A DNA stretch of 25,452 bases from IMG/VR virus record IMGVR_UViG_3300010271_000013; one strand, written 5' to 3'. The position numbers and the translations under genes were made by a program. Origin of the DNA: a virus. The notes beneath the pieces were generated by a model. The model had not been told where the DNA came from and made no database searches. It saw only the letters and a program-made list of their open reading frames with translations. Below are positions 123-25,452 of this stretch, piece by piece (within the stretch, counting starts at the first letter, position 1; every line of letters starts with the position of its first letter).

Positions 123-326
123 TCAGCCATCTTCACATCTTCCATTCAATTTTAGGCTTAAACTCAACTGGTTCTTCACTATAGAATATTCCAAGAGAAG
201 ACTCACATATTCACAGATCCTTTGCTCAAATGTGATCCCTTCATGGACCACCTTCACACCCTCGTGGGTGTAATACGCTGAGGCATGTTTCCTCGCGGTT
301 TTGAGCGATATTGGCATGCCACTCAC
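123..326 (-). CDS. hypothetical protein (67 aa)
   Basis: ORF directly abutting the 327..761 gene in the same minus-strand operon; stop codon at 123..125 at the repeat-array boundary. No recognisable motif. Confidence 0.3.
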   Translation of the reverse strand: MSGMPISLKTARKHASAYYTHEGVKVVHEGITFEQRICEYVSLLLEYSIVKNQLSLSLKLNGRCEDG

Positions 327-761
327 TCAGATGTAAGTATATGACACCCTTATCCCGAAGTTCACATTTCCTCCTGTTGCAGTGGAGGGGATCACAAGCT
401 TCAGCTTCAATGTATGCCCTTCACCTGATGCTATCGTTCCCAGTTCTTTCATCGTGTCCCCGCCAACACTTGTAAATTCAGTGTCCCCATTAGTCTCTGA
501 TTTTACATTCAGCCATTTATCCGCGACCACTTCTGACCCCTCCTCGGGGGTGCCCCCAGTGAGTTGGCCGGTTGCTGTCACGGTGGTGATCTGGACATTC
601 TCCATATCCGAAACGCCCTCTTCCTCATCCTTATTATTGTATATTATCAGGGTTATGACGGAGGATTCTTCCCCAGCATACCACCATCCAAAATCAAGGG
701 GGTTCTCAGCATTATACTGGTAGTTAAAGTTATCCCAGAATGTCACAATTGGTGCAGTCAT
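327..761 (-). CDS. hypothetical tail-module protein (144 aa)
   Basis: ORF downstream of the tape measure gene in the same orientation and tightly packed; function inferred from position only. Confidence 0.45.
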   Translation of the reverse strand: MTAPIVTFWDNFNYQYNAENPLDFGWWYAGEESSVITLIIYNNKDEEEGVSDMENVQITTVTATGQLTGGTPEEGSEVVADKWLNVKSETNGDTEFTSVGGDTMKELGTIASGEGHTLKLKLVIPSTATGGNVNFGIRVSYTYI

Positions 762-1419: not shown

Positions 1420-4400
1420 TCATATCCTCCTCATGAGGCTTGTGCCACCTTTAAGGTACATCTGGGTTTGCAGTCCATTGTTCACTGTTTCAAGTATACT
1501 CTCCCCTATAGTGCGTCCTACTTCCCTGGCAGTTTCTTTATCCTCAACTCCGTTAATGTTCTCTATCCTGACCTCATTCTTCACAGTCATTTGGGGTGTG
1601 CTCTCCGCTGGGGGTGTGCCCTCAAGGCGGCTGGGGAGTGTGAAGCCCCCGAATAAGAGGCCTGATGAGTCTTTCAGTCCCGCGTTGAAGCTACCCCCGA
1701 GACTGTACCCGTACCCGTACATCACTTCATCCGTCAAGTCCTTGAGGGGGCCCTCCCTTGGCGGTGATCTTGGGAGGTATTTTCTGATGATCGCGAGGGC
1801 TTTCTGCAGTCCAGGGATCTGTGATAGTATACCCTGTGTGAGGTTCCGGATGAATGACGCCCCCCACTCCCTGAACTTGGAGGCTATGCCACTGAAATTA
1901 GGGAGAGGTAGGCGTGGCCACTTGAATCCTGAGAATGAAGACTTCACCTTGGAGGTGAATGTGGACCACGCCCTCCTGAATGCCCCGAGGATATCAGGCA
2001 TGGATACGTTGGGGAGTCTGGGCCACCTGAACCTGGGGATATTGGATGACACCCATGACCTGAATTTGGCCCAAGCGGATTGGATAGCTCCGACTATGTT
2101 GGGTATTGTGATGTTAGGTAGGCGTGGCCACCTGAATCGGGGTATATTGGATGATACCCATGACGTGAATTTGGCCCAAGCGGATTGGATAGCAGTCACA
2201 GGGTTAGGTATGCTGAGGCTGGGAAGTCTTGGCCATTTGAAAGTGGGAATATGTTCCTTAACCCATCCTGTGAATTTGTTCCACATCTCCTGCAGAGCCG
2301 TTACAGGATTAGGAAGAGGAAGTTTAGGTAGTTGTGGCCATTTAAATGTTGGTATGCGGGTCATGACCCACACTTTGAAGTCATTCCATACTTGCCCAAA
2401 GCCTTCGATGATGTACTTTCCGGGGTCCCTAAATAATTTTGAAAGTTCCTCACGGATAGGATCCTCAATGTAGGTCTTGATATTCTGCATCAGCGCTTCC
2501 TTTAGTTTGCTCCACTTTTCAGGGCCATAGATCCCCTCAAAAAGTTTTTCAGGGGAAAACATGTTTTTAATGGAATCAGGAAGTAATGAAAGAGGTGTCG
2601 GCCCGAATAAGGATGTTGGATCAGAGAGTGCTCTGTTTAGGTATTCCCTAAAGTTTGCGAGTATATCTACACTTAAAAGAGCGACACCAACTCCTTCACC
2701 GATACCCCTTATAAGCAAGGATCCTATACGGGAACCTAACTCTGGGATACTAACCCTTGCAGCGTCATCAACACTCCCTGTAAATCTCTCTAGGAGGGTC
2801 CTTGCAGCGTCATCAATCTGAGTATCCCCTATAGTTAAATCTATTTTGGGGAGTTTGAATTTGAATTCTGCAGGGATCTCAATTTTAGGTGTTAAACGGC
2901 CTGTCTCATCACCAAGGATCCTCTTAATCGTGTCAATAAACCCCTTAATGATATCCTTTGCTTTGCCCGCCGCCTTATCAAATCCTTCAGATAATGTATC
3001 TATGAGGCGGCGTGACAGTTCCTCAGGCAACCTTCCCTTCAATTCATCGAATCCGTCGGACAATAGCCTCCTGATAGCCCCAGTGACACGTGGGATGAGT
3101 CTCTTTAAGCCTTCGGCAAGGTACTCAGCGGCTTTTGCGAATACCCCAACAAGCAGTGATTCTCCGATTAGGCCCATGTCACCGAAAAAATCGTTCAACC
3201 ACATCGCGAACTGATCCAGATAGTACCTTATCCATCCTAATATATCCCTATGTTCTTTCGCTGATTTACCGAGCGCTTTGTTCATCCTCTCAGATTCCTC
3301 TTCAGTCACCTTACTCGTGGTTTTCCAGTTACTTGCCACCTGTGCCAGCGCTGGCCCCACTGATTCACCAAAAACCTCAGTGGCAACCCTAACACGTTCC
3401 TGCTGATCAGGAATCTGAGAAAGAACCTCTATAAAATCAAAAAGCACATCCTTGAATGGCCGCAGGTTTCCATGAGCGTCCCTCACAGCCACCCCAAATC
3501 CCTCGAGTTTATCACTGTACTTTTTTACGCTTTCCCCGCCTTCAACCCATGAACTTGATATCTCTGCTAGATCCCTAGCAAATGGCCTCAGAATCCGTGT
3601 GCCTATGGGGCCTACTGATGCAATTATCCTGGCTGTATCCTCCACATTCAAACCTGCTTGTTTGAAAAAATATCCAAGGCGATCAACGGTATCAATGAAC
3701 TGTGTGAATGATGGGTAACCTGAGACCCTCCATAACCCAAGGAGCAGGTTCACTGTATCTGTTGAGTCTTGTACACTGACATTGAAGTCCCTAAAGACCC
3801 TTGCAAGTGCAAGTGTCACTGTGGATGCATCCTCACCACTCCTTTTAACCCCAAGGAGGGCTGCTTTAAAGTATCCCATAGTCAGGTTCACATCATTGGT
3901 GTAGGCTGCAAGTGTGTACATCACTGACGCTGTTCCCTTCATCCCTAGTGAGTAGACATAGTTTTCACGGATTAGATCCTCCATGGCTTCTCTCTGACTT
4001 TGAGTTGCATTTGTGAGGATTGCTGACTGCTCAATTATCTTATTATAATTCAAGAGCTCAAGTGTTTTATTATATGAGAAGAATCCCGCCGTTAAGCCAG
4101 CGACTTTTGAGGTTAAACCATCAACAGCTCCGGTGAATGTGTTTGTTGTCTCAGCAGCTGTTTCCATTGATTCTGTATCCACCGTGATCGTAGTGTCATA
4201 TGTTGTCCCATCAATCTCCTCAAGTTTTTCTTTGAAGTTTTCAATGTTTTCCTCGTTAACATCCGCGTTCAGTGTAGTTGTGACCTCATCAGGGATATCA
4301 CCTAGAAGTCCCTGTAGTCTCTCAACTATTTCTGTAGCGTTGTCATCAACATTTAATGAGATATCCACAGTGGATGGGAGCTCACTAAGAAGTTCTTTCA

Positions 4401-4800
4401 GGTTTGTGATTGGTTCTGTAGCGTTATCATCAACATTCAATGTTATGTTAAATTCATCAGAGAGTCTCTCCTTCAAAGAATCAAGCACATCAGATGCATT
4501 ATCCTCCGCGGTGAGGGTTACATTCACTTCTGATGGTAAACCATCCACAAGGTCCTTAATATTTGTGATGGTCTCTGTGGCAAAGTCATCGAATGCAGAA
4601 ATTGTGATTTCAACATCTGAGGGTAAAGTTTCAAGAGAATCCTGGATTGTCTCAAGTATTGGGGTGACAGTATCCTCTGTGGTGATATCTACTTCGACTG
4701 ATCCTGGCAGGTTGGACAGTGCATTGTTTAAATCGTTTAAACCGTTCACCACTTCCTCGGCATCCATTCTGACTTGCACGGCAAGTTCATGATCAGTCAT
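1420..4800 (-). CDS. tail tape measure protein (1126 aa)
   Basis: Longest ORF in the window, in the tail module. Five C-terminal 35-aa repeats with W/F at fixed spacing ([87 protein letters not shown] and others) and N-terminal ~28-aa repeats, as is typical of tape measure proteins. GGAGG Shine-Dalgarno-like motif about 9 nt upstream of the ATG on the minus strand. Confidence 0.75.
1830..2370. repeat. In-frame ~105-bp tandem repeats (5 copies) inside the tape measure gene; coordinates approximate
   Basis: Near-identical DNA blocks around 2020..2090 and 2125..2195 (GGCCACCTGAA...CCCATGAC.TGAATTTGGCCCAAGCGGATTGGATAGC), matching the 35-aa protein repeats. Confidence 0.7.
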
Positions 4801-4843: not shown

Positions 4844-5557
4844 GTGAAAAATAGTATTGGGGTGTTTGTGTTGAAGCTTCAATGTAAAGAATGCGGCAGG
4901 GAGTACACATTACAGGATGATGAAGACCCCATGGATTACACATGCGAATGCGGGGGGAACCTAGAGAAAGACGAAGATCTAAGTGTATTAAAAGGCAGCA
5001 TATACCTTGCATTTATGTGGTTAGCGGCAGCTACAAATGGGGGTATCCAGGGGTTAGGGCTTCTTCTAATAGAATTGATATTATTCATTTTGCCAGCTAT
5101 AATCATATCAGCCATAATTCTCCGCGAAAAAAACCCTAAAGAATTACTTGGCATTGAGGGCATCCTATTCATCATATTAGGCATAATCGTCATCCATGAC
5201 CCTAAAAGCCTGATCTATGGTGCCTTCGGTATATTAGGATTACTAGCAGGGGTGGTCCTAACCATTGAAGGAGTGCTTGGCACTATTAAAGGAGATTCTG
5301 ATAAAGAAGGGCCCAGGGAAGTAGAAGGAGGTTTCCATGTCCTCCACGCAACAGCTATCCTCCTAGGAAGTTACATTGCATTACTTCTGATCAACCCCAC
5401 TGCAAGTGAAAGTGAGGGTATCATGGCCCTCACTATCATGTTCCTAGTTCCAATCCTCACTGCACTAAGCATAATCTACAGGAAAGATAACCCTAAACCT
5501 CTTAGATCAGTCCAATTAATAACCGCTATGATCATCTTATTCGTCCTCATCATTTAA
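4844..5557 (+). CDS. multi-pass membrane protein with N-terminal CxxC...CxC zinc-ribbon-like motif (237 aa); true start may be an internal GTG or TTG
   Basis: Only long ORF in the 4801..5536 gap and on the opposite strand to its neighbours. N-terminus CKECGREYT...YTCECGG, followed by about six hydrophobic helix-length segments separated by charged loops. Overlapping minus-strand ORFs translate to low-complexity sequence. Confidence 0.5.
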
Positions 5558-6276
5558 AGAATAATTTATCCTTTTGAGGGCCTCTAGTTTTTTCTCAATC
5601 TCCTCCTTGGAGGGTTTCACCCTGGGGGGTTCCATATGAGCCAGGTGATATTCTATGAATACACTGTACTCAAGTTCAAGTATCTCCCTTAAGCTCCACC
5701 CTGTCTTCATGCTGAGCTGGTAGATCCCCCTTTTGAGGGAGATCCACTCCTCCTCCGGGTTCCACTCTTTTTTTCAGTATTTTCAGTACCCCTAGGGTCT
5801 AGTTCATCAGTGGATACCCCTATGATATCAGGGTTCCCAAGTTCTAACATGATATTCACGATCTCTGTGACCATGTATGGGGCTAATTCTACGTCGGGTA
5901 GACTGTCAATGTACTCTGTTAGGGTCCCCTGAGCTTCCGCTTCCTTGTATTCTTTAGTGTCCCTGTACAGGGCCCTCTTCAAGCCTCTCTGCGCTAAGGG
6001 GTAACTTATCCTGCTGACCTCCACTGTGAGTTTATCTATCCTATCCTTTAGTTCTTTAATTTTCTTCGCATCATCCTCTGAGACGCCCTCCCCACTCTCT
6101 AGCCTCCCGATGAATTCCTGGTAGGCTGTTGCTATCTCCAATGCCTCATTCCTTTTTTCGATGAGGGGGATCACATATTCACTGTCAACAACCCTGTACC
6201 CTTCGAGTTCTACTTCGGTACCGTCCAGTTTAACCTTTTTCCTCCTCAGAAAAGAGAAACGTTTGGGGGTGGTCAA
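5537..6276 (-). CDS. predicted G-T chaperone fusion made by programmed -1 ribosomal frameshift (about 247 aa)
   Basis: After the heptamer at 5767..5775 the -1 frame stays open for 76 codons ([76 protein letters not shown]) to TAA at 5537..5539. Frameshifting itself is an inference. Confidence 0.35.
5707..6276 (-). CDS. putative tail assembly chaperone, G-like (189 aa)
   Basis: Sits between the putative major tail protein gene and the tape measure gene; acidic product; carries a canonical -1 slippery heptamer 18 codons before its stop. Confidence 0.45.
   Translation of the reverse strand: MTTPKRFSFLRRKKVKLDGTEVELEGYRVVDSEYVIPLIEKRNEALEIATAYQEFIGRLESGEGVSEDDAKKIKELKDRIDKLTVEVSRISYPLAQRGLKRALYRDTKEYKEAEAQGTLTEYIDSLPDVELAPYMVTEIVNIMLELGNPDIIGVSTDELDPRGTENTEKKSGTRRRSGSPSKGGSTSSA
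5767..5775 (-). other. canonical -1 frameshift slippery heptamer A_AAA_AAG in the zero frame of the chaperone gene
   Basis: Minus strand reads GAA AAA AAG in the zero frame of the 5707..6276 ORF (plus strand CTTTTTTTC). Frame verified by counting codons back from the stop at 5707..5709. Confidence 0.45.
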
Positions 6277-13423: not shown

Positions 13424-14822
13424 GCCTCCTCCTCCTTCTGAGGGGTCCTGAGATGTAAATCTTCTTCTTTCTCCTCATCTCCATTGATAATATGTTAAAA
13501 GCACCACTGAACGCATCGACCTGATCGTCATGGACACCCTCCATGGGGAAGGCCTCCAATTCATCAAGGAATGCCCTTGTCCAGGAAGCTCTGAGGACTT
13601 TGATGCGCCCTGATTCCGCATAACTTGAAACGGGAAGGGCGCGTGTCACCTTATCCCCAGTCACGCGGTCAGCCCTGAATGTGTAGCCTTGGAGTAGGCT
13701 TCTAAGGTAATCAGTGACTATCTTACCTGAGGATCCTGGCTCCTCCTCCTTAGCGATGATCACTTCACGCCCATCCTCCTCAGCAGTCCTCAGGACCTTC
13801 GATTTAACCTTTCCAGGGGATTCTCTGAACCGCCGGACATCAAGAACATAATAGTAATCCTCCTTATCCACTCCCAGAAGCAAACCAACTGTATAGTCAG
13901 GGTCATTGGCCCCGTCAGGTTTAGTTGCTGCGAAATCCCAGTACCTGACGCTCATCACAAGACCATTTGGGGGTGAATCAATGACCTCAAACCATTCCCT
14001 CTTGAAAACTCCACCCTGCAGTGTAACATCCCAGTCCCCATCTTTCAACTGCCTACGGGTTACATGGTCAAGCATATTCAGGGCCTCTTCATATTCATCC
14101 CGGTTAAGATAAGGGTTTTCCCTCCATGTTGAGGGGATGAATGTCTTTTCACCTGTAATGAAGCGGGTTTTAACCCATTCATGCCCAATACCTCCAGGGT
14201 TACTGGTGGCCCTGACGCGTAGAGGTATGTGATCATTCACTTCCTTACGGAGTGATCGGAACATGAAACGATACTGGGTCTCCATGAACTCTGTGAGTTC
14301 ATCGAATGCGATATAATGATATGATGATCCCTGGTATCTGTAGCGGTCCTTTTCATGTTCCATATGCCCAAACTGCAATGCAGCGCCGGAGGGGAATGTC
14401 CACCGTTTTTTCTGTTCATTCCACTCTGCATCCGTCCCCCCAAGCCAGTCATTTGCCATGTCTATAAGGCCTCCTTCCTGGCTGAGCTCAGGATAGGTTC
14501 GGCGCAGGATTAGGGCGGCGTAATCAGAGTAATGCACATACTGCAGGGCCCCCATAAGTAAAGCCACTGATTTACCGCCACCTGCAGCACCACCATACAG
14601 GACTTCACGTTCATCTGACAATAGAAACTTAATCTGTTTATGGAAGGGGTTCACAGGGATATATGGGTTCAATATTATCGTCGAATAGAACAGCTTCAAT
14701 TCCCTGTCAGAGAGGCCCTGGAGGATGCTTCGAATATTCTCTGATTCTTTCAGTTTCTTTTTCCAGTCAGCCACCTTCACCTTCAGCCTCTTCATCATCC
14801 AGGCCTTCATCCATACCCTCAT
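13416..14822 (-). CDS. terL: terminase large subunit (468 aa); true start may be one of the internal Met codons
   Basis: Walker A-like GGAAGGGKS in VLYGGAAGGGKSVALL, Walker B-like IAFDELTEF, and a C-terminal acidic nuclease-like segment (VHDDQVDAF). Upstream of the portal gene. Confidence 0.8.
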   Translation of the reverse strand: MRVWMKAWMMKRLKVKVADWKKKLKESENIRSILQGLSDRELKLFYSTIILNPYIPVNPFHKQIKFLLSDEREVLYGGAAGGGKSVALLMGALQYVHYSDYAALILRRTYPELSQEGGLIDMANDWLGGTDAEWNEQKKRWTFPSGAALQFGHMEHEKDRYRYQGSSYHYIAFDELTEFMETQYRFMFRSLRKEVNDHIPLRVRATSNPGGIGHEWVKTRFITGEKTFIPSTWRENPYLNRDEYEEALNMLDHVTRRQLKDGDWDVTLQGGVFKREWFEVIDSPPNGLVMSVRYWDFAATKPDGANDPDYTVGLLLGVDKEDYYYVLDVRRFRESPGKVKSKVLRTAEEDGREVIIAKEEEPGSSGKIVTDYLRSLLQGYTFRADRVTGDKVTRALPVSSYAESGRIKVLRASWTRAFLDELEAFPMEGVHDDQVDAFSGAFNILSMEMRRKKKIYISGPLRRRRRHV

Positions 14823-16372: not shown

Positions 16373-16699
16373 AAATAAAAAAAGCAGAGACTATAAAACT
16401 TTTCACAGCGAAATCAACATGGTGAATAAAGGTATCCGCATCATATTTTAAAGTACTCTTTTGCTTACCATATCTCTTTTCTACAAAATATAATTTGCTG
16501 TTTTATATTATTACGAAGCCCTCTATTTTAATGTATGTACAAAGAAAAAAAGATGTATGTACATCCGCGAATGTATCCCCAGGGAGTCTTGTACAGTCGA
16601 CTGTACATGCCCTGTACAGCTGTATGTACATGATGTGCTGGGGGTACTCTCGTCAATGTATGTACAAAGAGAAAAAGATGTATGTACAAATAGATAAAT
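16373..16699. promoter_or_regulatory. AT-rich intergenic control region with clustered TGTACA palindromes (candidate operator and promoter, or origin)
   Basis: About 330 bp without a credible ORF, lying between the regulatory gene block and the structural genes. Eight TGTACA hexamers and an 18-bp perfect palindrome. Confidence 0.55.
16530..16688. repeat. 34-bp direct repeat pair bracketing a palindrome cluster
   Basis: AATGTATGTACAAAGAAAAAAAGATGTATGTACA at 16530..16563 and AATGTATGTACAAAGAGAAAAAGATGTATGTACA at 16655..16688 (one mismatch). Between them the perfect palindrome TGTACAGTCGACTGTACA (16590..16607) and further TGTACA sites at 16613..16618 and 16625..16630. Confidence 0.9.
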
Positions 16700-17164
16700 T
16701 TATAAGGAGACTCCCATATCTAAAAGTAACCTTAAAATCTCCTCTTCAGGAGCCCCATAGATCCTACTAGCAATCTCTATCAGATCCTCACCACGATCAT
16801 TAACAACCTCACTGGGGGAAACCATACCCTCTCTCTCCTCAAGTCTCTCCATAACAAACCTTGCAGCTTCCCTCACCTCCCTCATGGGTTCATCAACAGG
16901 CTCAGAAAACCTCTCTAACTCTCTTTTCAATCGATCCTCTTCCATATTCAATCTTTCCAATTCTTTCTCTAATTCAATCTTCCTCTCAGATATCTCATCT
17001 AACTCTTCCCTGAGTGCTTTCAGATATAACTCTGGGATTATACCCTTATTCTTCCTGAGTAACCTTGCAAAATATTCGATGGCATCAGCATAGGTGTACC
17101 TGCTTTTCTTAATAGTCTCCTTATCAACCCTTGAAACCCTGACATTTATTCGCGCGGTTTTCAT
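16700..17164 (-). CDS. ribbon-helix-helix-like DNA-binding protein with coiled-coil C-terminal region (154 aa)
   Basis: N-terminus ARINVRVSRVDKETIKK...YADAIEYFARLL fits a strand-helix-helix pattern; charged coiled-coil-like middle. Gene ends at the edge of the palindrome cluster. Confidence 0.45.
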   Translation of the reverse strand: MKTARINVRVSRVDKETIKKSRYTYADAIEYFARLLRKNKGIIPELYLKALREELDEISERKIELEKELERLNMEEDRLKRELERFSEPVDEPMREVREAARFVMERLEEREGMVSPSEVVNDRGEDLIEIASRIYGAPEEEILRLLLDMGVSL

Positions 17165-21936: not shown

Positions 21937-22161
21937 GAATAATTTCTATGGGTGCATTGTCCATAAATGTGGACTTTTATCTGAACTTTCTCATCTTAAA
22001 GGTTGATATTTTTGTCCCTATTTCCGCCACATTTGACATACAAAGCACCCATCAATGTAATACATGAACTTTTATCGACAATGCCAACCAACAATCAATT
22101 ACACATGTTCCTGCCACCTGCAAACAAACAAACGCAAACTACTTTTTCTTTTATTCCTTTT

Positions 22162-23043
22162 TTAATCTGATGTGATCACACCCCAACCAATGTGCTGGAA
22201 CCCTGCTGTGCAACATGGCACCCCCAGGGGCCTCCCCGTCTTCGTAGCGGAGACATAATCCCATATCGTCCCATCCTTGAGCTCAAACCCGCCAACTCTC
22301 AGGAGGTAGTGGCCGTACCATTTCCCGTCGTTACACTTCACCCGAACATGTTCGATTTTCACCTCGTAGCCCATCTCTTCGAGGACCTTGCTGAAGAGTT
22401 GGCAGGCGTCGGTGCAATTGATCCCCTCATCAGTCATCCTCCTCACCGCATCGTCATCACTATATTTGTCATTATAGTAGTATTTGTAGTTGCATTTTCT
22501 TGCGACCGCACCATACAGTGTCGTTGCATCCACGAAGTCCCCTATCTTCTTCAGGACTCTCTTTGTCCACTCACCCTCCAGTCGCGGTCTCTCTATGTAT
22601 ACCACCTGGGGTTCCCTTCCATACCTGTCCTTGAAATTGTTGTATCGTCTCACCATGTCCCTGAATGTTTCGAGTGGGATGGATTCCCCTCCCCCTGAGC
22701 GGATGAATATGACGCGGGGTTCCCTCTTGTTCTTCATTTTGAAGTCCTCATACCTCTTCAACATGTCCTTGAACGTTTCGAGGGGTACTGATTCCCCTCC
22801 CCCTGAGCGGATGAATATGACGCGGGGTTCCCTCTTGTTCTTCATTTTGAAGTCCTCATATCTCTTGCACATGTCTTTGAAGGTTTCTAACGATACGCTT
22901 GGGCCCCCACCTGAGTAGATGAACACTACCCTGGGTTCTCTCCCATTAACCTCCTTGAAGCGGTTGTACCTGCTTAACATGTCTTTAAATTGGGTTATGG
23001 ATACATACTCTGGAGTGTTCTTATTAATCATGTCCACCTCCAA
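22162..23043 (-). CDS. pei: pseudomurein endoisopeptidase-like lysin (293 aa): tandem wall-binding repeats plus Cys/His/Asp peptidase domain
   Basis: Three near-identical ~36-aa repeats (EPRVVFIYSGGGPSVSLETFKDMCKRYEDFKMKNKR, EPRVIFIRSGGGESVPLETFKDMLKRYEDFKMKNKR, EPRVIFIRSGGGESIPLETFRDMVRRYNNFKDRYGR). C-terminal domain has candidate triad Cys in INCTDACQLF, His in GHYLLRV, Asp in DGTIWD, the order used by transglutaminase-like Pei enzymes. Confidence 0.6.
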   Translation of the reverse strand: MEVDMINKNTPEYVSITQFKDMLSRYNRFKEVNGREPRVVFIYSGGGPSVSLETFKDMCKRYEDFKMKNKREPRVIFIRSGGGESVPLETFKDMLKRYEDFKMKNKREPRVIFIRSGGGESIPLETFRDMVRRYNNFKDRYGREPQVVYIERPRLEGEWTKRVLKKIGDFVDATTLYGAVARKCNYKYYYNDKYSDDDAVRRMTDEGINCTDACQLFSKVLEEMGYEVKIEHVRVKCNDGKWYGHYLLRVGGFELKDGTIWDYVSATKTGRPLGVPCCTAGFQHIGWGVITSD

Positions 23044-23055
23044 AAATTAGATTCA

Positions 23056-23688
23056 TTAAACTCCTCCACTACTCCCACAAGTAAATCCAAGCGTCCCACA
23101 CTTGATATATTCTTCTCCACCGAATACCTTCACCCTTACCTTGTACTCCACATCCCTATCTAGTGACCCCCAGAAGTTGTATATTACTAGGGACAAGGGG
23201 ATGGTGCCGGAGCCTAGGAACCATACCCCATAAACCTCATCATTAATTTCAGTAATCACCCCTGACCCTGCGAAGTCCTCATCTCCAGTGTATTCATTCA
23301 GGAAATGGGTCAGAGAAAGTTGCCCATCACCATCCTCTGGGATCATAACCCTAAATTCACCTGCCACTATTTCCTCACCAGGATAGGATGCCGGCCGATT
23401 CACACCATTGAAGAAGATGAAGCTATCATCCCCCCTCAGACACCTGTCATCCACGACCCCACAACCATCACACAAACAAGAGGGGCCATGCGCAACACCT
23501 CCACCATCACGTAGAGGTGAAACAAACACACGATCCCCCACCTTAAAACTTGACCTTCCACGTGCAATATCCTGCCCACGTGAGGGGTGGACAGCCACCT
23601 GACCCCCTACATTGAACTTCCCAGGACCCACACCACCATCACCCCCATCACTGATCCTCCTCAACATGAACCTGTCCCCAGGCTTCAA
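23056..23688 (-). CDS. Gly/Cys-rich hypothetical protein, possible tail fibre or spike (210 aa)
   Basis: ORF between the 447-aa tail-associated protein and the lysin; Gly-rich and Cys-rich segments. Confidence 0.4.
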   Translation of the reverse strand: MKPGDRFMLRRISDGGDGGVGPGKFNVGGQVAVHPSRGQDIARGRSSFKVGDRVFVSPLRDGGGVAHGPSCLCDGCGVVDDRCLRGDDSFIFFNGVNRPASYPGEEIVAGEFRVMIPEDGDGQLSLTHFLNEYTGDEDFAGSGVITEINDEVYGVWFLGSGTIPLSLVIYNFWGSLDRDVEYKVRVKVFGGEEYIKCGTLGFTCGSSGGV

Positions 23689-23691
23689 CCA

Positions 23692-25035
23692 TCACACCCC
23701 CTTCACAGGTTTCCCATAATTACCATAGAGTTGGCTGTAGACTGAGACAAGGACTGTACTGGTCCTTTCATTCACATCTGAGACTGTATGGATACTGCTC
23801 AGTTTCTGTTGTGACTCTATCATGTTCAGGACCGTCTCGGCGAGGTTCTTGTTCGATTCAACATCAGGGTTGTCACTAAAATCAACCCTAGTCCTGCGGC
23901 CGCCATTATCCCCCTCCCATGACACGTTCGTCACAGTGAACACCTTATCTCCTGTCTCATAGGGGAACCTTATGGATTCCCCTGGATGGAATGTTTGCAA
24001 GCCTGGCACCTCAAAACTCCCGGTTGTAATGGGGTCCTTGGTCTTCCTCAGGGCTTCCTCCAGTTTCCTCATGAGCTCATTTATACATTCCTTCATCCAT
24101 TCTTCTTCTCTTGGCTGATCTGAATACAGTCCTCCGCGGGGGCCGCCCCAACGGTACAGCCATGCCATGAAGTCCTCAGGACTCCCTTTATGTCCATGAT
24201 TCAACCAGTCCAAGTAGACCATGTACCCATGCATGTAATTCATCATATCCGCGTATCTTTTCACTTCACTAGGGGAGGGTGGTGTCTCCTCTTTATCATT
24301 TTCAGTGGGGGGTGGGTTGCAGGTGACGGTGATCCTCTCCCCAACCCTGAGACCATACTTTTCTATGCTTGCAGCATCACTCACCGAACGTGTGACTTCA
24401 CCATTGGGTCCTGTAGCACCCTCATAGTAGTTGTACACCCCTTCACTTGACTCCCTGATCTCAATGTTAATCATGTTCTCCACGGGCAGGTCGGTCACAT
24501 CCCCCTTACTGAACACTCTGAAAGTACCATATGGGTCTATATACCACCCCACATTCGCATCCTGATCATTCGCAACAGTGAAGAGCGTGTTAAGTGCTTC
24601 TACCTTACTCCTGAATTCCCCTCCATAAAAATAAGGGTCAAGGGCATTATTAGAGAACTGCACCTGGGGTATGCTCTCTGATGCGCCTATAATTATCTTG
24701 GTGTCCCTCAGGATGTTCTCAATGATCTCCCTCATGGGGAACACTCTACCCCCGCGGAGAACAGCACCAAATGCAAAGGGTTGTCTGGATAGGAGGAATG
24801 CATCATTATATCCGCCAATTGTGTATTGAAGACCATTTGCTGAGCGTGTCATGGTCACCGTCTCAGCGCGGCCAGTGAACACTTCATTATCCCTAACGAG
24901 GAACTGGATCTTATCCCCTGTCTTAAATTCTTTTTTCTCTCGTGGCCTTATTGTGACAGTGAATGATGTAGCTGCATCGTTCAGTCTTTGCTGGATATTG
25001 AAACTCACAAGTCCCTTTTCAGGCATATTCCACAT
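23692..25035 (-). CDS. putative tail-associated / baseplate protein (447 aa)
   Basis: Large ORF continuing the tail module across the window junction; no motif recognised. Confidence 0.45.
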   Translation of the reverse strand: MWNMPEKGLVSFNIQQRLNDAATSFTVTIRPREKKEFKTGDKIQFLVRDNEVFTGRAETVTMTRSANGLQYTIGGYNDAFLLSRQPFAFGAVLRGGRVFPMREIIENILRDTKIIIGASESIPQVQFSNNALDPYFYGGEFRSKVEALNTLFTVANDQDANVGWYIDPYGTFRVFSKGDVTDLPVENMINIEIRESSEGVYNYYEGATGPNGEVTRSVSDAASIEKYGLRVGERITVTCNPPPTENDKEETPPSPSEVKRYADMMNYMHGYMVYLDWLNHGHKGSPEDFMAWLYRWGGPRGGLYSDQPREEEWMKECINELMRKLEEALRKTKDPITTGSFEVPGLQTFHPGESIRFPYETGDKVFTVTNVSWEGDNGGRRTRVDFSDNPDVESNKNLAETVLNMIESQQKLSSIHTVSDVNERTSTVLVSVYSQLYGNYGKPVKGV

Positions 25036-25452
25036 CCCTGATTTTTACCTTGAGTTCACCATCATCCCTAATATCTTGAATGATCTCGCCTTCAAGGGTG
25101 AGATCATATTCAACCATCTCCCCTGTGTCAACCCGCACGTAGCAGGGGATGTATCTCATGGATGTGCTCTCATCAACCATCACCCCTACCCTGATGGGGA
25201 GTGTTGTGTGTAGGGATTTCCGTTCAGGACGCCTAACTTTTAGCGTGCAGGGGAGGGTTGCTTCCCTAAATCCTGTTATACCTACTCTGCAGGGGAGGGT
25301 TGCTTCCCTAAATCCTGTTATACCTACTCTGCAGGGGAGGGTTGCATAACCAGTTTGCTCCTGAGACCCAAATACTTCCACCTTGCAGGGGAGGGTTGCA
25401 TAACCAGTTTGCTCCTGAGACCCAAATACTTCCACCTTGCAGGGGAGGGTTG
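25019..25452 (-). CDS. repeat-containing small protein whose 5' part is encoded by the tandem array; on a closed circle it would start at ATG 143..145 (about 152 aa); could instead be a short ORF starting at ATG 25178..25180
   Basis: Minus-strand frame is open through every repeat unit (54 bp = 18 codons, 42 bp = 14 codons), giving ATLPCKVEVFGSQEQTGY and ATLPCRVGITGFRE repeats. The same frame crosses the junction to MEDVKMAD starting at 143..145, with a stop just upstream at 146..148. Confidence 0.3.
   Translation of the reverse strand, partial: TLPCKVEVFGSQEQTGYATLPCKVEVFGSQEQTGYATLPCRVGITGFREATLPCRVGITGFREATLPCTLKVRRPERKSLHTTLPIRVGVMVDESTSMRYIPCYVRVDTGEMVEYDLTLEGEIIQDIRDDGELKVKIRDVEYA
25247..25452. 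repeat. Composite tandem array: 2 x 42-bp units, then 2 x 54-bp units, then partial core; continues at 1..120
   Basis: Units at 25247..25288 and 25289..25330 (42 bp), 25331..25384 and 25385..25438 (54 bp), each starting with the core GCAGGGGAGGGTTG. Copies of each unit type are nucleotide-identical. Confidence 0.9.

Follow-up and report, generated by a model that had tools for sequence, protein, structure and literature searches.

In-frame tandem duplication is already known in the tail-fibre genes of phages. In Enterococcus phage EfV12-phi1, 1.8-kb in-frame tandem duplications in the tail fibre arose during coevolution (PMC6365445). Here we describe a tandem repeat array in the IMG/VR virus record IMGVR_UViG_3300010271_000013, a stretch of 25,452 nt that was analysed whole and is referred to as the window. 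The array is real and rapidly changing, and lies in frame in an open reading frame (ORF) of the minus strand, an orphan gene of the tail-tip block that is very probably translated. As in the EfV12-phi1 fibre, whole in-frame units are gained or lost in a gene of the tail or adsorption region, with identical copies and a copy number that varies in the population. Particular to this locus are the small units of 42 and 54 nt (14 and 18 aa, not 1.8 kb), their two types with a common 16-nt head, the 115-150-aa orphan protein in place of a recognised fibre, a host that is an archaeon and turnover observed directly from sample to sample. No description of this array was found in the literature.

Further parallels come from the same virus family. 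The tape measure protein (TMP) of psiM2 (L001; ORF21, annotated 'contains 9 direct repeats') has a perfect 15-nt array of 11 units (16595-16760), translated as 11 copies of PKIE(F/I). The window TMP (1126 aa vs 1186 aa in psiM2) has a single PKIE and is without the 41-residue PKIEF run. Like the array described here, the psiM2 array keeps the reading frame, consists of perfect tandem copies within a tail gene and varies in copy number between relatives; the two lie in different genes and share no sequence relationship. Repeats of the TMP have classically been linked with tail length. A further 105-nt repeat (2.2 copies) is present in the window TMP at 2010-2235, and in L002/L013 the TMP was called as an 879-aa protein plus a separate 210-aa ORF. 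The second parallel is the 108-nt (36-aa) pseudomurein-binding repeat (PMBR, PF09373) of the pseudomurein endoisopeptidase Pei, at 22650-22923. Four units are found in the window and in L012 (289/293 aa), and three in L020 (2389-3150), a contig of the same sample series with a Pei of 253 aa. This is a second in-frame copy-number polymorphism among near-identical genomes of the same virus population, although PMBR, unlike the ATLPC units of the array, which match no family, is a curated domain that binds a known ligand. In-frame repeats are a habit of this virus group, as TMP and Pei illustrate. Beyond the group, the adenovirus fibre shaft is built from 15-residue triple beta-spiral repeats, and repeat number sets the length of trimeric viral fibres and beta-solenoids. 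The array shares with these the pattern of beta repeats of about 14-18 residues with a conserved Pro or Gly and alternating hydrophobics; the likeness is one of pattern only, with no sequence or structural match obtained.

Tandem Repeats Finder reported 2.4 copies of a 42-nt unit at 25246-25345 and 2.3 copies of a 54-nt unit both at 25330-25452 and at 1-123, all 100% identical. These are the 14-aa and 18-aa ATLPC units that had been noticed earlier by a model from the letters and a list of ORFs (the sequence-only reading). The two unit types begin with the same 16-nt head, TGCAGGGGAGGGTTGC, which occurs six times and on one strand only; shuffled sequences gave an expectation of 0.28 copies and reached six in 0/100 cases. 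On the minus strand the ORF reads MEDVK-MAD-(ATLPCKVEVFGSQEQTGY)n-(ATLPCRVGITGFRE)2-ATLPCTLKVRRPERKSLH-TTLPIRVGVMVDESTSMR-YIPCYVRVDTGEMVEYD... to the TGA at 25019-25021. It starts at ATG 128-130 or at the alternative in-frame ATG 143-145 (MEDVKMAD...), which has a TGA upstream at 146-148. The sequence-only reading gave the latter start, that TGA and the terminal stop correctly; gene callers on related contigs use ATG 128-130 (MAD...), within a 5' end spanning 122-145. This ATG overlaps the stop (123-125) of the upstream 64/67-aa ORF as ATGGCTGA, and the stop of the repeat ORF overlaps the start of the next gene as ATGCCTGA, both gene junctions being ATGnnTGA overlaps.

Copies of the 54-nt unit A, each encoding ATLPCKVEVFGSQEQTGY, lie at 14-67 and 68-121, with a further 13 nt at 1-13 (1-121 in all). 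Those at the other window end, 25346-25399 and 25400-25452 (1 nt short), are the same sequence as 14-120 under a 120-nt overlap of the ends. Two copies of the 42-nt unit B, each encoding ATLPCRVGITGFRE, occupy 25262-25303 and 25304-25345. The degenerate single-copy units C (ATLPCTLKVRRPERKSLH, 25208-25261) and D (TTLPIRVGVMVDESTSMR, 25154-25207) follow in the same frame at 54-nt spacing, with a copy at 68% identity 54 nt upstream (family D1); C and D are identical in all lineages. Unit E (YIPCYVRV...), a non-repeat C-terminal part and the TGA make up 25019-25153. All of these features are on the minus strand. The protein would consist of 14- or 18-residue units starting xTLPC(K/R)V, with tandem A and B units followed by degenerate C, D and E and a tail of about 35 residues. 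The array would form the N-terminal two-thirds of a small translated gene of 115 to >151 aa. Peptides from the repeat part would be VEVFGSQEQTGYATLPCK, VGITGFR and EATLPCR.

Comparison of about 20 related contigs revealed at least seven configurations, with one to three A units and one or two B units, in three sequence lineages. The metagenomes behind these sequences are the ENA series ERZ27245368-82, ERZ795096, ERZ772710, PRJDB5067, JGI 3300010276 and 3300012521. The window-type lineage (A1, B1) includes 1A+1B (L014), 1A+2B (L002/L013, L003), 2A+2B (L012; P0010) and at least 3A (L034). In the second lineage (A2, with B2 being ATLPCRVDITGSGD) we found 1A+1B (L011), 3A+1B (L008) and a hybrid B pair (P0011). 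The third, from Japanese biogas samples (A3 ..SQGQTGY, B1), is represented by 3A+1B in L022. Natural protein lengths are 115, 129, 147 and 151 aa, together with a form of at least three A and two B units, and the 90% cluster of the protein contains the 115-, 129- and 147-aa forms. The proposal that gain or loss of units would change the protein and spare the frame is borne out by these variants, in all of which frame 0 is open. L012 and L014 show 0 mismatches in 2143+3317 nt of flank (5460 nt), yet the array of L014 is shorter by 54 and by 42 nt. Identical flanks with one A and one B unit fewer indicate that unit number changes much faster than point substitution. The locus thus has both marks of an in-frame variable-number repeat, unit lengths that are multiples of three in an open frame and a unit number that differs among near-identical genomes. 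We regard the variation in unit number as almost certainly real. Perfect 54- and 42-nt repeats would allow replication slippage or unequal recombination to add or remove whole units, far faster than point mutation. Each such event would shift the protein by 18 or 14 residues with the frame intact, and copies within a genome would stay identical.

The unit sequences themselves also diverge quickly. When the window is compared with the second lineage, 19/3510 nt differ in the flanks (0.54%) and 10/96 nt in the array (10.4%; Poisson p=2e-10), which puts array divergence at about 20 times that of the flanks. Array copies are identical within each genome, the first one in L022 excepted. Evolution of the array is thus concerted and far quicker than that of the sequence around it. 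Exchange with a more distant relative by recombination could account for the fast divergence, as could accelerated repeat turnover. Between lineages, unit A is constant at the protein level and unit B changes at positions 8 and 12-14. Variation by a diversity-generating retroelement or an invertible segment was considered and rejected, as the core lies on one strand only and has no inverted partner. No ORF of reverse transcriptase size was seen in the window, whose ORFs of at least 60 aa are psiM2 counterparts, members of the tail-tip block or small, although no Pfam search of every ORF was aimed at reverse transcriptases.

The sequence-only reading had proposed a candidate length-variable tail or host-range protein placed between tail genes. 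The length variation and the placement hold; the tail or host-range part comes from gene position only. The repeat ORF lies between the TMP gene (1420-4800, minus strand; PF10145, phrog_33360), the anchor of the tail module, and the Pei gene (22162-23043, minus strand; PF12386, E=3.8e-74, and four PF09373 repeats), which marks both the end of the module and the type of host. Between these two, genes of 104, 144 and 64/67 aa, the repeat ORF and genes of 447 and 210 aa replace ORF23-27 of psiM2. The 447-aa (or 444-aa) gene directly downstream (23692-25035, minus strand; ATG at 25033-25035 or 25024-25026) encodes an N-terminus with a weak baseplate-hub match (phrog_177, E=1.5e-6) and a GpP-like match (PF21683, E=0.0096) below the Pfam cutoff. 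Two genes upstream, the 144-aa protein (327-761, minus strand; phrog_11814, E=3.7e-24) has full-length relatives at 27-33% identity (tblastn) in large Bacillus, Brevibacillus and Listeria myophages. In Listeria phage LIS04 the neighbouring genes are baseplate J, tail protein I and RCC1-type genes, and in Brevibacillus phage Jenst they are cell-adhesion and RCC1-type genes, a baseplate and fibre context within the tail region as read from the annotation of these two records; Bacillus phages SP-15 and G carry relatives as well. A tail-tip role is the most likely one because of the hub match, the tail context of the 144-aa relatives and the swap of the block relative to psiM2.

Searches for the identity of the array protein itself weigh against this assignment. 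A word-seeded search of 5.8 billion proteins found only its own 90% cluster, and HMMER against 1.84 billion cluster representatives returned only repeat-on-repeat matches, the best of them clearly spurious. Pfam, PHROG, NCBIfam, PADLOC and PDB gave no match, nor did tblastn against 50,697 phage records, and neither the tail-tip module nor the repeat unit was found in GTDB genomes. Single-sequence AF2 gave an all-beta model with an unusable pLDDT of 34.7; the protein is accordingly only predicted to be all beta-strand. The homology and structure check suggested by the sequence-only reading therefore yielded no relatives beyond the cluster. As for a fibre or receptor-binding protein (RBP), the location fits, between TMP and Pei and beside the weak hub match, and no sequence similarity to known fibre, spike or RBP domains was detected in Pfam, PHROG, NCBIfam or PDB. 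Homology to proteins with 14-residue [YF]RDAxxR[VIL]R[VL]x[VI]x[AG] repeats (P0003, P0004 and P0007, one with a Laminin_G_3 domain) was also considered. The period is the same, and their profile scores the B1-B1 junction FREATLPCRVGITG at 12.3 bits. This homology was rejected: all other units scored <2 bits, the top match of the search was unrelated, and E-values were inflated by repeat-on-repeat matching.

On gene position only, the case that the array protein is a virion component of the tail tip is evenly balanced. For the statement as a whole, a translated, length-variable array with a tail-tip structural role, the evidence tips slightly in favour. The product would be a short modular beta shaft or fibre-like piece in which unit number sets length or valency, and variation in unit number would tune adsorption. 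That unit number affects adsorption or host range is a tentative proposal, again drawn from gene position only. Somewhat more speculative is a contingency-type locus, at which fast, reversible in-frame change of Cys-/Pro-containing beta units remodels a tail-tip protein. If this were true, the population would always hold several adsorption variants and positions 8 and 12-14 of unit B would face the receptor. It would also be the first such mechanism in a methanogen virus, in a protein family without known relatives.

These functional proposals have a serious competitor in neutral drift of an unstable repeat, since integrated copies at one host site differ in unit number. Here the array would be translated but would be no determinant of host range; the protein would be an assembly factor, a non-essential decoration or an accessory, and its unit number would drift neutrally. 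Perfect repeats are mechanically unstable, and the Pei and TMP repeats of the same virus group also vary, suggesting general repeat instability. Within one sample series, the integrated copies at one site carry different unit numbers with unchanged flanks; unit number thus varies with no visible switch of host, a further point against a host-range function. Nor does any match link the protein to receptor binding. Drift alone fits less well with unit A, whose protein sequence is conserved across lineages despite a roughly 20-fold faster divergence of the array DNA than of the flanks. Unit B has its replacements clustered at four positions (8 and 12-14), and the gene is part of the swapped tail-tip block. 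We consider neutral drift the less probable account, at a substantial minority of our confidence.

That the array is translated at all is very likely, judging from its sequence. Both unit lengths (54 and 42 nt) are divisible by three, as is the distance between degenerate copies, and 59 non-redundant codons are open from the ATG that overlaps the upstream stop (chance ~0.06). The earlier proposal that the array is in frame has therefore stood up, and the differences between units A1 and A2 add to it. All four differing sites (CTC>CTT, TGC>TGT, CAA>CAG, ACT>ACC) are synonymous in the ORF frame (4/4; Fisher p=0.002). The same changes produce a stop or four replacements in the other two minus frames and three replacements in the fully open plus frame. 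On these substitutions, the protein sequence of unit A is shown to be under constraint. Of the four changes, two (CTC>CTT, TGC>TGT) fall inside the shared 16-nt head, at wobble positions, which makes a conserved DNA-binding site unlikely. The TLPCxV motif continues in degenerate form, in frame, in unit E, within the clearly coding 3' part; codon-usage log-likelihood for the last 53 codons is +26 in the ORF frame vs -1 to -80 in other frames.

Several observations speak against translation of the repeat part. Units A-D score close to neutral in codon-usage log-likelihood (0 to +1.6), where real genes of that length average ~+20, and a synonymous-codon test on the repeat part gave no discrimination. 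Both starts have weak Shine-Dalgarno pairing (-5.3 and -3.3 kcal/mol), much as is seen at other overlapping genes. Across all 13 variable array sites only six are synonymous, and unit B has four replacements vs two synonymous changes. The database entry P0014, from an 18,815-bp NCBI contig, calls only a 53-aa product, from an internal Met. These points would suit a non-coding intergenic repeat, for example protein-binding sites 42 and 54 bp apart, in front of a 53-aa gene (MVDES...). The codon score is neutral in units A-D and strongly positive in the last 53 codons, Shine-Dalgarno pairing is best at the internal ATG (-8.2 kcal/mol), and the 16-nt core is the most repeated element. That pairing, however, touches the start codon and leaves no spacer, and the core differs between lineages at wobble positions only. 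A non-coding repeat would also have to accommodate the four synonymous A-unit differences, unit lengths in multiples of three, 59 unique codons open from an ATG overlapping the upstream stop, and the recurrence of TLPCxV in frame inside the clearly coding part. We judge it improbable and retain translation of the array as the preferred reading.

More specific non-coding roles were dropped. As to an RNA element, searches for Rfam families and tRNAs found nothing, and the transcript was less structured than shuffles (z=+1.7) and so without excess structure. DNA-site readings (pac, att, iterons) were set aside because the core is found nowhere else in the genome and mutates at wobble positions. 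Judged from psiM2, whose record starts ahead of ORF1, the pac region would be expected in another part of the genome.

The array also determines how the window ends are to be joined. The ends overlap by 12, 66 or 120 nt, and the longest solution equates bases 1-120 with 25333-25452. As the overlap is made purely of unit A, the 54-nt unit count of this genome is ambiguous. The sequence-only reading had given a product of about 152 aa on the closed circle. The circle is upheld; 152 aa is the 120-nt solution (2A+2B), and 170 aa (3A) and 188 aa (4A) fit equally. Seven independent contigs (L012, L013, L014, L003, L008, L011 and L022) cross the whole array, entering from the upstream genes and continuing into the 447-aa gene, and the exact 2A+2B form is present in P0010 and L012. 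Since independent contigs cross the array unbroken, both the circle and the 2A+2B form are confirmed. A 28.7-kb contig (L003 and L021) goes fully round the circle and meets the array twice. L014, a 25,377-bp contig assembled at a k-mer length (k) of 141, is accounted for by a 25,236-bp circle and a k-mer overlap of 141 nt, and 25,236 is 25,332 less 96, or one A and one B unit. Circularity of the element is not in doubt.

In these genomes the array is a recurrent assembly break point, with 13 related contig ends and both window ends falling inside it. Such ends are expected if arrays are longer than k or mixed within a sample. They might instead suggest that differences in unit number are artefacts of de Bruijn graphs collapsing or expanding a tandem repeat. 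Arrays of three or more A units (at least 178 nt) are longer than k=127-141, and counts of three or more, which lie at the resolution limit of these assemblies, are less secure; this tempers the upper end of the range described above. The junction contexts of 1A+1B (112 nt), B-B (~102 nt) and 2A (~126 nt), however, each fit within one 141-mer, and real reads therefore carry these configurations. In L034, a k=141 contig, the start codon is followed by 151 nt of pure A periodicity before the contig ends. At least 140 nt of such periodicity is required beside the start codon, implying three or more A units. Unit sequences also differ among lineages. Assembly artefact is thus a very unlikely source of the variation. 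The wider caution is that tandem units create false "direct terminal repeats", leaving calls of circularity and genome length ambiguous by multiples of 54 nt and in need of care.

The sequence-only reading rightly cautioned that the plus strand is open as well, one plus frame being without stops within the array in any variant, but as a real gene that frame deserves almost no credence, being bounded by stops at 25244 and 184 with no ATG, GTG or TTG before the array, having three replacements between A1 and A2 where the minus frame has none, and running antisense to a genome whose recognised genes are all on the minus strand.

The window represents a 25.4-kb psiM2-like virus (Leisingerviridae), with all recognisable genes on the minus strand. 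Matches to psiM2 ORFs were found for 24 window ORFs, several of them 98-100% identical (both terminase subunits, portal, ORF19). Identity is lower for the TMP (72%, ORF21), the integrase (73%, ORF29) and the Pei lysin (53%). Of the traits of Leisingerviridae, the shared head, packaging and tail-tube genes are present, as are the Pei lysin and a tyrosine integrase (PF00589). The tail-tip genes are not the same, with 0 window ORFs matching psiM2 ORF23-27. A 113-aa gene after the TMP matches psiM2 ORF22 at 35% only and is its sole counterpart. The swapped tail-tip block covers 123-1080 and 23056-25035 and consists nearly entirely of orphan genes, the 144-aa protein being the only one with relatives. 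Elsewhere in the tail module, a stretch of about 500 nt (5193-5707) is without a minus-strand gene, and an equivalent gap is present in psiM2 (13778-14304). In L002 and L003, a 228-aa gene was called on the opposite strand of the matching gap.

Within the block, the upstream 64/67-aa ORF (123-326, minus strand) has a codon log-likelihood of +8.3. For the 447-aa protein, no relatives were found outside its own cluster, tblastn against the same phage records gave none, and the AF2 model was unusable (pLDDT 33.8). The start of this gene differs by lineage, with MWNMPEKG, MPEKG and MSEKVSEKG forms (window 25022-25035; L008 about 470-500, minus strand; L011 2617-2640). The MSEKVSEKG form has a 12-nt duplication, tctgaaaaggtg, at the overlap with the stop of the repeat ORF, and there the repeat protein ends in V instead of A. 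The 144-aa protein gave weak, non-significant PDB sequence matches to immunoglobulin light-chain variable domains (E 0.08-0.9) and may adopt an Ig-like fold.

The Pei lysin, with its Peptidase_C71 domain and four pseudomurein-binding repeats, identifies the probable host as a pseudomurein-walled, heat-loving methanogen of the Methanothermobacter type. The virus is temperate. In related contigs the element occurs as a circle of about 25.3 kb and also integrated within host contigs of 76-276 kb, where an HTH/cupin host gene lies about 250 nt from Pei. Identity of the integrated copies to the free form ends about 175 nt past Pei (L012 about 5366-5612; L013; L020; window 21937-22161), and beyond this junction an HTH_3/cupin gene is followed by an AMP-binding enzyme gene. 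In the free form the integrase is next after Pei. These two arrangements place the attachment site between Pei and int. No tRNA gene was found at the integration junction.

To our knowledge, almost nothing has been established about host recognition by methanogen viruses, and the tail-tip genes of psiM2-like viruses that we know of are all unannotated. The repeat array offers a concrete handle that can be tracked by PCR, as it changes between samples of one reactor series in which the rest of the genome is identical. If unit number does affect adsorption, such changes would explain rapid virus-host dynamics in Methanothermobacter-based biomethanation reactors, and the array protein would be the first candidate adsorption protein named for the Leisingerviridae, the psiM2-like family.

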